Origin: an uncultured Anaerolineales bacterium
GTDB lineage: Bacteria; Chloroflexota; Anaerolineae; UBA7937
DNA length: 25,412 bases
Direction: 5' to 3'
Assembly: GCA_964442805.1 (NCBI GenBank)
Contig: CAYUAM010000001.1
Location: 1-25,412, forward strand
Shown here: piece by piece, positions 5,727 to 23,941 of the stretch
Layout: every line of letters starts with the position of its first letter
How positions within the stretch are numbered: the first letter of the stretch is position 1
Program-made: the position numbers and the translations under genes
The notes under the pieces: generated by a model
Told to the model about the DNA's origin: nothing
Databases searched by the model: none
The model's input: the letters and a program-made list of their open reading frames with translations, nothing else

Positions 5727-5998
5727 TCAGAGTTTGACGTGCTCCAGAATGTAATCGAAGGTTTGTCGTCCAGATCCTCTATGGGAGAATAGTACCCTTG
5801 AGTGGTGGTGACGCTGGCATGCCATGCGGCTCTCTGTACCCTAAACACCGTGACCCCGCCATCGATGGCCAGAGTGACAAAGGTGTGTCGCCGGACGTGG
5901 GGATGAATCTCCTTAGGGTCCAGCCCTACCCGCTTAGCTTACCACCTGACCAGTCTTACCATTGCTCTTGTGGAGGTCGCCTTATCCGAGGCTGGAAG
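5727..5998 (-). pseudogene. Tyrosine recombinase/integrase C-terminal remnant
   Basis: Reads RLVRW*AKRVGLDPKEIHPHVRRHTFVTLAIDGGVTVFRVQRAAWHASVTTTQGY, a degenerate HxLRH...GH...TTxxY box II. It has an internal stop and a late frameshift, and the N-terminus is missing. Confidence 0.75.
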
Positions 5999-6637
5999 AT
6001 TTTAAACTCCATCCTTCTTTCTCGCCTGACGGTAGGTACAACCAAGTTGAACCGCCCAATGCCCAACCGAAAGAGGTTTGATGCGTATGTTCATCATGGT
6101 ACAATAGTGACATGGGGCTGGGCGGTGGCCCAGCCCTTGGCGACTAGGATTCTCTACGGCAGGAGAAAACGCAAGGGCCCTCAGAAACTCTTACTCTGGC
6201 TGCGGATGCGCCTCTTGTCTGTGACCGTTTCATTGGCTACCATCCTACATGACCAGCTCCGGTTGCCATCTTTGGACACTTTCATTTGGAGGCCTTTCAT
6301 CAGAATCTGCCCAGCAACCCAGGCTGGCACAGATCGCCTGCCTTCTCTCCTTTCCTGCGAAATCCGAACGTGTAGGGACTTTTCCCGCCGCAGTGGTCAT
6401 TGACTTGATAGAGGTTATGGGCTATAATCTGTGCACCGTTCGAGCATGCGCAGCAGTGGATGGCTCACTCAGAAGAGAAGAGCACAACTCAAGCCCTAAG
6501 TTCTCACCGTGATGTGCTTAGGTTAGGAAAGCCCGCCGATCATATGAACTCAAAAAGTTGAAAGCTCAGATGGAGCCGTAGGCGCTAATGGTATTGCTTT
6601 CCATAATCATCTTGGCCCGGAGGATGTAATAGACCGA

Positions 6638-6730: not shown

Positions 6731-6825
6731 AAGATAACTCCGAAAAGGCAAACTCGTCGAAAGGCGAGGGTGCAAAGCCACGGGTCCTGACTTTCTGGAT
6801 AACCGGGCTGCCGAAGAGATTTCTT
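6731..6825 (+). ncRNA. Cyclic di-GMP-I (GEMM) riboswitch aptamer
   Basis: GGCAAAC (6747-6753), stem CTCGTC-GAAA-GGCGAG, GCAAAGCC (6772-6779), P3 CGGGTCC...GGATAACCG, and 3' GGGCTGCCGA match the GEMM consensus. Confidence 0.9.
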
Positions 6826-7023: not shown

Positions 7024-7200
7024 GGGCAGGTGAGCTCAGACATCTTTAAGAGATGCGGTCTATTTTGTCGGGAGATGAGTCACGAATTTGAATGGGTGCC
7101 CAGGCTAGGGCCGTAATAGATCAGGAAATTAGAACACCTTCAGTCAAAGGCTGTATCGGATTTCAAGTCTGGGAAAAGGAGCACAAAGGAGAGGAAGAAA

Positions 7201-10331: not shown

Positions 10332-10419
10332 TCTCCTTTTCTTGTTTGCTTAAAAGATGGATGGGAGGTGCGGGTATGCAAATGATGGGGATAACGGGAT
10401 GTGGAGGAGGGAGGTTCCC

Positions 10420-12591
10420 ATGACTAGGAAGGACAAAAAAGAAGAGGGGGTCCTGACTTTGCGGGTTGCAGAAGGGCAGAGCAAGGATGTTGGAAGGGGC
10501 ATTGCCCGCATCGACCCCCAGGATTTCGAGAGGATCGGGGCGGCGATCGGCGATATCGTCGCTATCACCGGGAAGAGAACGACCGTGGCCAAGATCATGC
10601 CTGCCTATCACGCCGACCGAGGAAAAGGCATCGTGCAGATCGACGGCATAATTCGAGAGAACGCTCAAGCCAGTCTAGACGAAAAGGTCCGTATTCACAA
10701 GGTTGATCACCAGATAGCCAAGCAGCTCACCTTGGCCCCTCTGGGCTCGGGGCGGACTCTGCCTCGAGGGTCGGATAGCCGCTACGTTGGAAGGTTGCTC
10801 GAAGGGCTAGTTATCACTGAAGGGGATCGGGTTCGCGTCAACCTCTTCGGTACCCGCTCCGTGGATTTCACCGTGACCGATACCTCTCCTGAGGGCATGG
10901 TTATGGTGGCAGCAGCCACGATCACCAAGATCGAGGGGGAAGGGGCGGAGAGGGAGCGGGGGCTGAAGGTCTCCTATGAGGATATTGGGGGGCTGGGCAA
11001 GGAGATTCACCGCATCCGAGAGATGATCGAGTTGCCATTGAAATACCCTGAGGTCTTCGATCGGTTGGGCATCGAAGCACCAAAGGGCGTCTTGCTACAT
11101 GGCCCTCCGGGCTGCGGCAAGACCCTTATCGCCCGCGCCGTGGCCTCGGAAACATCTGCTCATTTCTTTCCCGTCAACGGCCCGGAGATCATCCACAAGT
11201 TCTACGGTGAGAGCGAGGCGCACCTACGGGAGATCTTCGAGCAAGCGAGCCGCAATGCGCCGAGCATCATCTTCCTAGATGAGATCGACGCTATCGCTCC
11301 CAAACGGGAGGAGGTACATGGCGAGGTGGAGAAACGGGTGGTGGCCCAGCTTTTGGCCCTGATGGATGGCTTGAAGTCCCGAGGCGAAGTGATAGTCATC
11401 GGGGCCACCAACATCCCGAACTCTTTGGACTCTGCTCTACGTCGTCCAGGCCGCTTCGACCGGGAGATCACCATCAGCATCCCGGACAAGAATGGCCGTC
11501 TGGAGATATTGGAGATACACACTAGAGGAATGCCCCTTGCTGATGATGTGGATCTGGAAAGACTGGCCGAGATCACCCACGGCTTCGTGGGAGCTGACCT
11601 GGAGGCTTTGTGCCGCGAAGCGGCCATGATCACCTTGCGTCAACTGATGCCGGATATCGACTTCGCTAAGTCTCACATCCCCTACGAGCGGCTGCTGGAA
11701 TTAGAGGTGACCATGGACAATTTCCTGACCGCTCTAGGAGAGGTCGAACCATCGGCCATCCGTGAGGTCTTCACTGAGGTTCCCGATGTCAGATGGGAGG
11801 ACATTGGGGGCTTGGAGGAGGTCAAGGAGATACTGAAGGAAACTGTTGAATGGCCTCTCAAGTACCCTGAGCTCTTCGCACAGGCCAAGACCGCGCCGCC
11901 TAAAGGGATACTTCTGTACGGGCCGCCGGGCACAGGCAAGACGCTTTTGGCCAAAGGGGTAGCCAACGAAAGCGAAGTGAATTTCATCTCCGTCAAGGGC
12001 CCGGCGCTCATGTCTAAGTGGATGGGGGAGAGCGAAAAGGGGGTGCGTGAGGTATTTAAGAAGGCCCGGCAAGCAGCACCCTGTATCATCTTCTTCGACG
12101 AGATCGATGCCCTAGCCCCCATACGGGGCTATGGCGGCGGAGACTCCCATGTGGCTGAGCGGGTGGTCAGCCAGTTTTTGACGGAGATGGACGGCATTGA
12201 GGAACTGAAAGGGGTAATCGTCTTGGCCGCCACTAACCGTTTGGACATCATCGACCCAGCATTGTTACGTCCTGGCAGGTTCGATGTGCTCATCGAGTTG
12301 CCCCTCCCCGACCGTGAGGCCCGTGAGGCGATCTTCAAGATCCATACCAAGGACAAACCCCTGGCTTCCGATGTTGACCTGAGGATCTTGACGGATATGA
12401 CCGAGGGCTCAGTGGGAGCGGACATCGAATCGATCTGTCGCCAGGCCTCGATGTTAGCCATTCGAGAGTTTCTCAATGAGGAGGTCGACTCTAAATCGTA
12501 TGAGAGTTTTCAGATCACCATGCGACATTTCCGCCAGGCGATAGAAATGGCCGGGAAACTGGCCTCGCCGGGACCATTGACGAAGGGTTAG
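10420..12591 (+). CDS. cdc48: CDC48/p97/VAT-family double AAA+ ATPase
   Basis: ATG 10420 with RBS GGAGG. N-domain [18 protein letters not shown]; Walker A GPPGCGKT and GPPGTGKT; Walker B FLDEID and FFDEID; two RPGRFD arginine-finger motifs. Confidence 0.96.
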
Positions 12592-12617
12592 ACATAGGGA
12601 AGAGTTTGTGGTATAAT
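12589..12617 (+). promoter_or_regulatory. Strong sigma70-type promoter P1 at the end of cdc48
   Basis: TAGACA-17 bp-TATAAT with extended TG. Confidence 0.8.
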
Positions 12618-12623
12618 GTTATT

Positions 12624-12830
12624 GGTATTTCTTCCATTTTTGAGATTAGATATCTTGCTTGTTAGGGTCAGATCCTCGAGATCTAGTGAGGTCGATGAGA
12701 CAGCGTTGGTGTTGAGTGCGCCCCTTCCTGGAGGAAGGTGTCTACCCCAGCGATGACGACTCTCGCCAGGAAGGTCTTTTCGAGGGTCTGACGGAGTGAC
12801 CCCGTCGCAAAGACGGGGTCACTCATTTTT
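12624..12830 (+). ncRNA. Putative structured ncRNA or leader, unit 1 (unassigned family)
   Basis: Lies between promoter P1 and a terminator. 15-bp closing stem 12667-12681/12778-12792 plus nested stems; no credible ORF. Confidence 0.55.
12794..12830 (+). terminator. Intrinsic terminator
   Basis: Perfect 13-bp stem GAGTGACCCCGTC / GACGGGGTCACTC, then ATTTTT. Confidence 0.85.
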
Positions 12831-12933: not shown

Positions 12934-12962
12934 TTGACACCTCAGTAAGAAGGTGGTAAGAT
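12934..12962 (+). promoter_or_regulatory. sigma70-type promoter P2
   Basis: TTGACA-17 bp-TAAGAT with extended TG; preceded by AATTTACG x2 at 11-bp period (12906-12924). Confidence 0.75.
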
Positions 12963-12968
12963 TATAGA

Positions 12969-13290
12969 TGAATTTGATGAATTTGAGGACTTCCTCTCAT
13001 GACAAAATAGACCCTCTGAAAGGGGAGGGGTGAAGCCAGGGGTGTAAGATGAAAGCAGGCTAGGGTAACCAGCCAGATTACCGCCGCGGGCTCGGCGGCG
13101 AAGAGGATGCTTCGTCAATCTCTTCTGGTGTGGTTGTCCTTCGGTTGGCTTTCTAGTGGGGGAGAGTGCTTCGTGTTAAGGAGTCTGACAAGTACCTCAT
13201 TGAATCTGTGCACTCCTTACTCGGTTAGCTCATTTTGCAGAGGTTTTGAGCCATCTTGACCTTATTGGGTTGAGATGGCTCTTTTTCTTT
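12969..13290 (+). ncRNA. Putative structured ncRNA or leader, unit 2 (unassigned family)
   Basis: Lies between promoter P2 and a terminator. Multibranch pairing: 12993-13010/13229-13243, 13032-13039/13145-13152, 13062-13077/13124-13140, 13177-13184/13212-13219. Confidence 0.55.
13248..13290 (+). terminator. Intrinsic terminator upstream of gvpA
   Basis: GAGCCATCTTGACC / GGTTGAGATGGCTC (14 bp with G-U pairs), then TTTTCTTT. Confidence 0.85.
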
Positions 13291-13507: not shown

Positions 13508-13720
13508 GTGGCAGTGGAGAAGGCTATCGCGTCCTCGAGCCTGGTCGAAGTTGTCGACCGGGTCTTGGACAAGGGGATCGTGATTGATGCTTGGGCCAGG
13601 ATCTCCCTGGTGGGCATCGAGATACTAGCCCTCGAGGCCAGGGTCGTGGTCGCTGGGGTAGACACCTTCCTCAAGTACGCCGAGGCCATCGGCTTGACGC
13701 CGCTGGCTGCACCGGCCTAG
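13508..13720 (+). CDS. gvpA: Major gas vesicle structural protein GvpA, copy 1
   Basis: 70 aa, [56 protein letters not shown]; GTG start with RBS AGGAGGTG. Confidence 0.98.
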
Positions 13721-13797: not shown

Positions 13798-14010
13798 ATG
13801 GCAGTGGAGAAGGCTATCGGGTCCTCGAGCCTGGTCGAAGTTATCGACCGGGTCTTGGACAAGGGGATCGTGATCGATGCTTGGGCCAGGATCTCCCTGG
13901 TGGGCATCGAGATACTAGCCCTCGAGGCCAGGGTCGTGGTCGCTGGGGTAGACACCTTCCTCAAGTACGCTGAAGCCATCGGCTTAACCCCCTTGGCTGC
14001 TCCGGCGTAG
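13798..14010 (+). CDS. gvpA: Major gas vesicle structural protein GvpA, copy 2
   Basis: 68/70 aa identical to copy 1; the RBS region is duplicated as well. Confidence 0.98.
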
Positions 14011-22849: not shown

Positions 22850-23941
22850 TTGGAAGCAAAAACCGTTCTACTGCCATCGAGTTACAGCAAGGCTACCCTG
22901 GTAGACCTACTGGATAGGGTCTTGGAGAAAGGGCTGGTGATTAACGCCGATATCATCATCTCCGTGGCCGGCATACCGTTGTTAGGGGTTAACCTGAGAG
23001 CGGCTCTGGCGGGCATGGAGACCATGCTGGAATATGGGCTGATGCGCGAGTGGGACGAGCGCACCCGTGAATGGGAGCGGAAACATATCGAAAAGAGGGG
23101 ACCGCACCTATTGGCTGAAGAGGAGATCCTCTTACTGATGTATGGGGCCCATTGGCATAGCAAAGGCATCTACCGCGCTTGGCGGCCTGGACACCTCTAC
23201 CTCACCAACAAGAGGCTATTTCTGTTTCGCAGCGAGCCTGGGGAGATGCTCTTTGAGACCCCCCTGGAGAAGATCAAAGCCTTGGCTATCCGGAGAGAGA
23301 CTCACTTCACGGGCATCGAAAGAGATATGGTTTACGTCGCTCTCAACCCTGAAAGGCTAGCCTACCTCTGCGCTGAGAGGCCAAGGGAACTTCAAGAGGC
23401 CATTCGCAGGAGAATAGAGGCCTTAGGCCTTCCCTTGGATGAGAGCCCTGGGCTTTCTCCCCTCGATGCGGAGATAGATGGGCTCCTTGGGGAAGATGAG
23501 ATAACCGCTGAAGCCAAGATGTGGTATCAACTCCCCCCCTCTGGCATCAGGGGAGAGAGATGGGGACCAGGTCGGTTGTATCTGACCAATAAGCGTCTCT
23601 TTTGGCGGTGCCATGAGGATCGCAAGATACCATTCGAGATCCCCCTCGCCGAGATAAGGGGGGCCAGGATGGAGAGGAGGGATCTAGGAGGGCTGATAAG
23701 GGAAAGGCCTGTTCTTTGCCTCTCTTACGGAAACCCCTTGGGCGCGAAAAGGGCTCTCTTTGTGGGGGATGATCTGACCGAGTGGGAGAAGGCCATCAAC
23801 CGCATCGTTGGGGAGATGGAGAGCTGTCCTCGTTGTGAACGCCGTGCTCCTACAAGACGGTTGTTAGAGAGGGGATGTCCTGACTGTGGCTGGGTGAGTC
23901 CCTGCCGGAGAGACGAAGCCTCGCCCCCGTTGGCGAGATAG
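22850..23941 (+). CDS. GvpJ-like domain fused to two GRAM/PH-like repeats and a zinc ribbon
   Basis: [44 protein letters not shown]; two repeats W(R/G)PG(H/R)LYLTNKRLF...FE(T/I)PL(E/A)(K/E)I; CPRC-x13-CPDCGW. Confidence 0.82.
   Translation: MEAKTVLLPSSYSKATLVDLLDRVLEKGLVINADIIISVAGIPLLGVNLRAALAGMETMLEYGLMREWDERTREWERKHIEKRGPHLLAEEEILLLMYGAHWHSKGIYRAWRPGHLYLTNKRLFLFRSEPGEMLFETPLEKIKALAIRRETHFTGIERDMVYVALNPERLAYLCAERPRELQEAIRRRIEALGLPLDESPGLSPLDAEIDGLLGEDEITAEAKMWYQLPPSGIRGERWGPGRLYLTNKRLFWRCHEDRKIPFEIPLAEIRGARMERRDLGGLIRERPVLCLSYGNPLGAKRALFVGDDLTEWEKAINRIVGEMESCPRCERRAPTRRLLERGCPDCGWVSPCRRDEASPPLAR

Follow-up and report, generated by a model that had tools for sequence, protein, structure and literature searches.

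Unit 1 is an intergenic element at positions 12589-12830 of a 25,412-nucleotide (nt) stretch of DNA, here called the window, from contig CAYUAM010000001.1 of an uncultured Anaerolineales bacterium. The genes of the window form a gas-vesicle (gvp) cluster, and unit 1 is probably a gene for a non-coding RNA of ~165-220 nt on the + strand. Its core is an inverted piece of gvpA, a gene that lies downstream on the same strand. With moderate confidence, unit 1 is read as a locus-linked, trans-encoded antisense small RNA (sRNA) that derives from an inverted gvpA fragment and would function by pairing with gvpA mRNA. This makes it a credible new sRNA family of a familiar kind, confined to one small subclade of the Anaerolineales. 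What best explains the unit, namely its antisense pairing capacity with gvpA, does not appear in an earlier note on this DNA that described unit 1 as an unassigned structured RNA.

The antisense block, GAGGAAGGTGTCTACCCCAGCGATGACGACTCTCGCC, occupies 12731-12767 on the + strand and is the reverse complement of gvpA codons ~43-56. Two tandem gvpA coding sequences (copy 1 at 13508-13720 and copy 2 at 13798-14010, both +) lie ~0.8-1.2 kb downstream of unit 1 on the same strand. Because the block is an inverted gvpA piece, a + strand transcript of unit 1 is antisense in trans to these codons. The 47 nt at 12728-12774 are 83% complementary to both gvpA coding regions (13629-13675 and 13919-13965) and include a perfect 23-nt complementarity between 12731-12753 and both 13650-13672 and 13940-13962; within the block itself, 35/37 nt are paired with each copy. 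None of 100 shuffles gives a comparable complementarity match, and the block and gvpA form the longest and strongest inverted repeat in the 25-kb window, where the runner-up has 32 nt at 72%. An nhmmer search matches positions 98-152 of the unit 1 model to gvpA on the opposite strand with an E-value of ~5e-9, which indicates that the core is an inverted gvpA fragment of ~50 nt within unrelated sequence.

Duplex energies place the strongest pairing of the core at the same two sites. The predicted target site in gvpA copy 1 is 13635-13673 (+), with 35 pairs, a hybrid energy of -73.6 kcal/mol, and a net energy of -37.4 kcal/mol; that in copy 2 is 13925-13963 (+), with 35 pairs, -73.6 kcal/mol, and -38.4 kcal/mol, respectively. 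Net energies allow for the cost of opening both partners and come from a region-restricted duplex calculation, which replaced an unrestricted duplexfold of the full sRNA against the full mRNA that returned meaningless whole-length duplexes. When the core is set against 80-nt tiles of the whole window, the gvpA sites reach -81 and -80 over a background of -36 +/- 7.6, with the next best tile at -58.7. Apart from unit 1's own reverse strand, the two gvpA sites are the top tiles.

Homologs of unit 1 come from loci gathered by a protein-anchored genome scan, one DNA-pattern metagenome scan, and look-ups of the closest homologs of the neighboring AAA ATPase. There are 10 distinct versions: that of the window and those of loci L001, L002, L003, L083, L086, L087, L089, L092, and L093. 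Each of the 10 sits on the same strand immediately 3′ of the AAA stop codon and comes with a promoter-like site and a terminator, and all fall in a subclade whose AAA protein is at least 91% identical. Unit 1 is absent from loci at 72-78% AAA identity and from ~45 AAA+gvpA loci of other phyla, in which a sensitive scan for self-antisense matches also finds nothing comparable. An nhmmer search of 96 loci with the 10-sequence profile finds no distant homologs, only opposite-strand gvpA and a weak match that leads to L005/L096. A degenerate-pattern scan of metagenome contigs, with gvpA wobble tolerated, returns two true loci, one of them new (L083), and two chance matches, while an exact look-up of the window GvpA returns one short contig without upstream sequence.

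Unit 1 begins with a sigma-70-type promoter-like site at 12589-12617 (+), which consists of a -35 TAGACA, a 17-nt spacer, and an extended -10 TGgTATAAT. The earlier note had proposed this site, and it bears up, with 11/12 consensus positions and recurrence in the homologs; L089 and L001 each have an equivalent called site. Upstream lies a CDC48-like AAA ATPase gene, whose TAG stop codon overlaps with the -35. The -10 box TGGTATAAT is present in 8/10 homologs and is weaker in L002 (TATGAT) and L087 (CATAGC). The predicted 5′ leader (12624-12666, +), whose start at ~12624 is read off from the -10 box, is unconstrained and variable in length: all ungapped columns vary in the 10-sequence alignment, with a mean pairwise difference of 0.39. 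At the other end is an intrinsic terminator (12794-12830, +; hairpin 12794-12824) with a 13-bp stem (9 G-C), a 5-nt loop, and a T-run, which was also among the earlier claims and is kept in the homologs.

Between the leader and the terminator, a closing stem of 15-18 bp appears in both minimum-free-energy and centroid folds. The earlier pairing of 12667-12681 with 12778-12792 stands and is extended by a 5-bp helix (12680-12684/12772-12776). The 5′ arm (12667-12684, +) thus comprises helix 1 at 12667-12679 and helix 2 at 12680-12684, and in the 3′ arm (12772-12792, +) positions 12780-12792 pair with helix 1 and 12772-12776 with helix 2. Compensatory and compatible changes among the homologs preserve both elements. 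The closing stem has one compensatory A-U to G-C change (L083) and several one-sided G-U-compatible changes, with 97-100% of its cells (n=180) paired and four cells broken. All terminator cells (100%) are paired, with compensatory double changes in two cases and compatible one-sided changes in five, and the loop sequence varies freely. Together they show three compensatory double changes and many G-U-compatible single changes across the 10 homologs; they change at near-neutral rates yet keep their pairing in 99% of cells, versus ~45% with slid partners. The whole transcript folds better than shuffles (z=-5.2 on the + strand), but the minus strand folds equally well (z=-5.7), and folding energy alone is therefore uninformative on strand or function.

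The antisense block is the most conserved part of unit 1 and, as far as sequence comparison can tell, the selected element. Every homolog keeps GAAGGTGTCTACCCCAG(C/T)GATG(A/G)(C/T)GAC(T/G)CTCGCC, which is the gvpA-complementary part. In the 10-sequence alignment, 5/37 columns of the block vary, with a mean pairwise difference of 0.034. In the adjacent AAA gene of the same genomes, 124/202 four-fold sites vary (61%), with a mean pairwise difference of 0.187; the block thus evolves ~5 times more slowly than these sites (Fisher p=5e-8). The 8-9 block positions that are four-fold in the gvpA frame are all invariant (p ~2e-4 to 5e-4, given 61% in the AAA gene), which indicates a constraint on nucleotides and not on codons.

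This slow rate bears directly on the main rival explanation, in which unit 1 is a relic without function, left from a former gvpA copy as an inverted fragment that decays 3′ of the AAA operon, with a terminator that serves the AAA gene and a fortuitous "promoter". The block is clearly gvpA-derived and in the gvpA frame still reads LARVVIAGVDTFL, and the compared genomes are closely related, so that some conservation is expected. However, a decaying fragment would not be expected to change ~5 times more slowly than four-fold sites of the neighboring gene while its flanks suffer indels, nor to keep the same ~35 nt of gvpA in every lineage. The -10 box is also conserved although it lies in non-coding DNA, and even as a passive 3′ untranslated region the fragment would be transcribed in antisense orientation. 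A relic is accordingly considered unlikely, though it is to be taken more seriously than any other alternative.

A coding function of the minus strand is another serious rival, since it would explain the conservation. A minus-strand open reading frame (ORF) of 47 amino acids runs from 12826 to 12683, has a conserved ATG, contains a GvpA-like core that reads ...LARVVIAGVDTFLQE..., and is open in 9/10 homologs. In this scenario, unit 1 would be a small gene for a truncated GvpA-like peptide under coding constraint. Its substitution pattern argues otherwise: the pooled ratio of non-synonymous to synonymous change (pN/pS) is 0.99, variable sites number 9/8/7 at codon positions 1/2/3, and within the GvpA-like part all substitutions but one change the amino acid, with four-fold sites invariant. 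The ATG is preceded by no Shine-Dalgarno sequence, whereas gvpA has GGAGGTG, and it simply complements the CAT between terminator stem and T-run. Downstream, no promoter was found on the minus strand, the frame is interrupted by an in-frame stop codon in L086, and its C-terminus shifts with indels. A minus-strand protein gene is hence highly improbable, and the open frame is a leftover of the block's gvpA origin. Automatic annotation might call this ORF (12683-12826) as a gene. An ORF on the + strand of unit 1 was ruled out by indels of 11 nt and ~24 nt.

These same two large indels fall in the interior of unit 1, where the structures proposed in the earlier note prove not to be conserved. The short motifs that it listed are all present where it had placed them. 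However, L001 and L002 have uncompensated changes that disrupt its inner stem GAGGTCG/CGACTCTC. The strand GATGAGAC of its kink-turn-like loop pairs locally with the 11-nt segment GTTTCATC, which is missing from the window and present in 8/10 homologs, and forms with it an 8-bp Watson-Crick hairpin; the flanking helix of the loop is broken in L001 and L002. A kink-turn or C/D-box-like motif calls for a conserved asymmetric internal loop that has tandem sheared G-A pairs and lies between two conserved helices, which the homologs do not show, and in L093 the segment is missing. The CCTTCCTGG hairpin switch fares no better: L089/L091 and L086 lack the ~24-nt segment with this arm, and in L087 it has three disruptive changes. 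The alternative pairing of GGGTCA with TGACCC occurs in the window only, with GAGTCA and CAACCC in other homologs. The kink-turn, switch, and anti-terminator are consequently peculiarities of the window, and the inner stems also fail the comparison across homologs.

The predicted fold in most homologs is a rod with a long closing stem that leads through a side hairpin to an imperfect helix, and such a shape could suit a structured RNA that acts through protein binding (a 6S-like RNA, a kink-turn, or another ribonucleoprotein) and not through base-pairing. This is the least probable of the explanations considered. Several homologs have lost or changed the inner helices and loops, 8/10 pair the proposed kink-turn strands in another way, and the invariant part coincides exactly with the gvpA-complementary block. 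A 6S RNA would have a large conserved central bubble, resembling an open promoter, between long closing and terminal helices. The 6S-like alternative of the earlier note finds no support on similar grounds, with no 6S match even at E<=10, inner helices that are not conserved, and a central region that is variable and partly deleted. No known family is matched: a check against the Rfam 15 covariance models gives no match at gathering score and only terminator-like noise at E<=10, the best being the terminator hairpin to BSnc120 (21.8 bits versus a threshold of 114). An Rfam scan of 8 related loci gives nothing at the homologous positions. The earlier suggestion of a new sRNA thus gains support from a putative promoter of its own and an intrinsic terminator, conserved in the 10 homologs, together with the lack of an Rfam match.

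Unit 1 lies upstream of gvpA on the same strand, ends in a terminator, and in the window can form alternative pairings, which together raise the possibility of a cis-acting leader, attenuator, or riboswitch that controls read-through into gvpA. The earlier note favored such a switchable attenuator alongside an sRNA. The alternative pairings, including the anti-terminator, are not conserved, and no aptamer-like conserved core exists besides the gvpA-complementary block. Separate promoters follow the terminator, and in relatives bona fide cyclic di-GMP (c-di-GMP) riboswitches follow as well: the unit 1 terminator is succeeded by one or two units of a promoter and a c-di-GMP-I (or -GGC) riboswitch, and then by gvpA. 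These c-di-GMP-I and c-di-GMP-I-GGC riboswitches score 72-89 bits and are located at L089 6402-6843, L001 8525-8695, L086 6586-6674, L087 6027-6115, L083 6377-6465, L093 4838-5219, and L002 6434-6521. In L093, a whole IclR-family gene also stands between unit 1 and gvpA. The role of cis-regulatory leader for gvpA belongs to the riboswitch units and not to unit 1, for which a leader function is very doubtful. In the window, at 12934-13290, the first promoter and riboswitch unit is missing, and a 15-bit aptamer remnant at 12998-13086 sits behind a promoter at 12934-12962. A literature search found no paper on c-di-GMP riboswitches or trans-acting sRNAs at gas-vesicle genes.

Pairing between the block and gvpA recurs in the genomes that have gvpA on the contig, where 33-36/37 block nt pair with gvpA and at least one copy reaches 34-36/37. 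Across genomes, hybrid energies range from -68 to -81 kcal/mol and net energies from -15 to -38 kcal/mol. Several relatives have the complementary stretch GGCGAGAGTCGTGGTCGCTGGGGTAGACACCTTCCTC, broken by one G-G mismatch and one G-U pair. The block shows four substitution types, of which an A-to-G opposite U and two C-to-U changes opposite G at separate positions stay paired as G-U. Substitutions in the block lean toward pairing, too few of them to count as co-variation. The gvpA target site itself has two synonymous variants, GCT GGG GTA GAC (perfect) and GCC GGG GTG GAT. The latter introduces one A-C mismatch and two G-U pairs and weakens net binding by 13-26 kcal/mol (L001, L086). The upstream gvpA copy is often the less complementary variant, as seen when tandem target sites are compared (L001 9397 versus 9697; L086 7381 versus 7677; L087 6835 versus 7131; L093 6915 and 7212); in the window, both copies have the perfect variant.

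As an antisense sRNA, unit 1 would be transcribed starting at its own promoter and might in addition arise as the 3′ end of read-through transcripts of the AAA operon, with the same polarity both ways; it would end at the strong intrinsic terminator. In most homologs, the modeled rod ends in a small hairpin that is made of the 5′ half of the antisense block and exposes a GUGU loop, and the complementary mRNA segment can be modeled as a mirror hairpin with an ACAC loop. Classical antisense RNAs use such complementary hairpin loops for loop-loop initiation, and the complementarity between GUGU and ACAC would fit this mode. A duplex of ~35 bp would then form inside the gvpA coding region. The target site is ~130 nt from the gvpA start codon, which makes blocking of ribosome binding unlikely. 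A near-perfect ~35-bp duplex is, however, a natural substrate for double-strand-specific cleavage, and this points to repression by co-degradation. Expression of gvpA may thus be lowered via RNase III-type cleavage or co-degradation, perhaps as a threshold against leaky expression; stabilization of the gvpA mRNA would be the alternative outcome. In this clade, c-di-GMP riboswitches precede gvpA, and the RNA would act alongside them.

This proposed mode of action would resemble that of IstR-1/tisB and other type I antitoxin-like RNAs. These are separate small genes beside their targets, with near-perfect complementarity of >20 nt, a pairing region presented on a stem-loop, and a duplex processed in RNase III-type fashion. 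Unit 1 differs in that its target is a structural protein gene and not a toxin gene, and in that its predicted pairing site lies deep in the coding region.

A related element occurs outside the subclade, in a distant Anaerolineae metagenome-assembled genome (MAG) with an AAA protein 72% identical (L005/L096, which are the same contig). At the same post-AAA position, L096 6655-6742 (+), there is a mini-element of ~88 nt with the order AT-rich -10-like box, GGAAGGTATCCACCCCGGCGGTCACCAC, and perfect terminator. It departs from the window type mainly at gvpA third-codon positions, and its core is 20/20 complementary to the GCC GGG GTG GAT variant of gvpA in L093, L086, and L001. The mini-element may represent another specificity class, or it may be a relic. 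L096 2270-2300 (+), 5′ of a GvpH-like gene, is a further inverted fragment derived from gvpA. Two similar fragments without a matching local gvpA in L096 speak for the relic explanation of unit 1.

Several points weigh against an antisense sRNA. The promoter and terminator of unit 1 rest on consensus matches. In genomes this close (AAA 91-94% identical), with an almost unchanging core, true co-variation of sRNA and target does not emerge. The fourth substitution type of the block, a T-to-G transversion in L087, breaks pairing, and the same locus has a weaker -10 box. In L093, both gvpA copies are the weaker variant, with one mismatch and two G-U pairs, and the T-run of the sRNA is weak. For the L096 mini-element, no matching gvpA exists within its 16.6-kb locus, its own gvpA-like gene included, and the element is equally compatible with a relic and with regulation of some unseen gene. 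Lastly, the direction of regulation and the nuclease are guesses.

A more elaborate version of the antisense scheme starts from the two gvpA variants. Here, the sRNA would discriminate gvpA paralogs and silence one GvpA isoform, and it would thereby set the isoform ratio or a gas-vesicle threshold. Together with a possible RNA from the minus strand at the gvpA leader and the c-di-GMP riboswitches, it would make up an RNA circuit of three layers, and the L096-type element would represent a second specificity class. This proposal is speculative and rather unlikely. The minus-strand unit that it invokes consists of a promoter-like site ~30 nt 5′ of the gvpA start and a minus-strand terminator ~140 nt away, at 13478-13305 (-) in the window. 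The promoter-like site recurs at L089 7237-7067 (-) and L001 9367-9339 (-), with the terminator present only in L089. This unit could be a second small RNA, antisense to the gvpA leader.

Gas vesicles are buoyancy organelles that also serve as acoustic and magnetic resonance imaging reporter genes, and GvpA dosage is critical for their assembly. To our knowledge, the only RNA-level control reported for gvpA to date is cis-antisense transcription, in a cyanobacterium and in haloarchaea. The closest precedent for unit 1 is in Calothrix sp. PCC 7601, where an antisense RNA of ~420 nt is cis-encoded opposite the gvpABC operon (Csiszar et al. 1987, as summarized in PMC6202907). According to that summary, the Calothrix RNA, like unit 1, belongs to a bacterial gvp operon with duplicated gvpA and is complementary to gvpA-type transcripts, and it was proposed to form a duplex affecting translation or stability (PMC6202907), a presumed mode that unit 1 would share. 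Unlike the Calothrix RNA as summarized there, unit 1 occupies a separate site ~0.8-0.9 kb 5′ of gvpA, lies on gvpA's own strand, and is found in Chloroflexota and not in Cyanobacteria; only a 37-47-nt block is gvpA-derived, within an otherwise unrelated structured RNA. Unit 1 does not lie on the opposite strand or overlap the gvp operon, as a cis-encoded RNA of the Calothrix type does. In the gvp cluster of Halobacterium salinarum, antisense transcripts include a signal antisense to gvpA (Kruger and Pfeifer 1996; PMC6523106). Unlike unit 1, these RNAs are archaeal and cis-encoded and overlap their targets (PMC6523106); none is a separate gene, and they have no sequence relation to unit 1.

If the antisense reading is true, unit 1 would be the first separate, trans-encoded anti-gvpA sRNA, one of very few Chloroflexota sRNA candidates with an obvious target, and a clear case of an sRNA gene born when a fragment of its own target was inverted. 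Taken with the c-di-GMP riboswitches next to it, unit 1 would suggest that flotation in uncultured Anaerolineales is under dense RNA-based control. The finding is narrow in scope, at one subclade and ~10 loci.

The upstream neighbor of unit 1 on the same strand is a CDC48-type double AAA ATPase of 744 amino acids (10357-12591). The spacer between the AAA gene and gvpA measures 917 nt, and its first 240 nt are unit 1. Other proteins encoded around unit 1 are GvpH/Hsp20-like, GvpN-like AAA_5, Hsp20, Hsp70, two GvpL/F, GvpG, and GvpJ-like proteins. The nearest genomes are uncultured Anaerolineales/Anaerolineae MAGs with AAA proteins in the 91-94% identity range given above.

A c-di-GMP-I-GGC riboswitch at 6738-6816 (+) matches its Rfam model with 73 bits and sits 5′ of the first gvp accessory-operon genes (7201 onward); it is found likewise in L086, L089, and L001. 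In the leader 3′ of this riboswitch, 7057-7078 forms a 22-nt inverted repeat, 86% complementary, with 12992-13013 at the start of the unit-2 transcript. In L093, an IclR-family regulator gene (5779-6576) is inserted between the sRNA/riboswitch region and gvpA; at this locus, the sRNA terminator tail is the weakest, and the less complementary gvpA variant is the only one present. Finally, a 363-amino-acid protein encoded at 22850-23941 (+) has a Gas_vesicle (GvpA/J) domain at its N-terminus together with weak GRAM and Vps36-like matches, an extension that is unusual for the GvpJ type.

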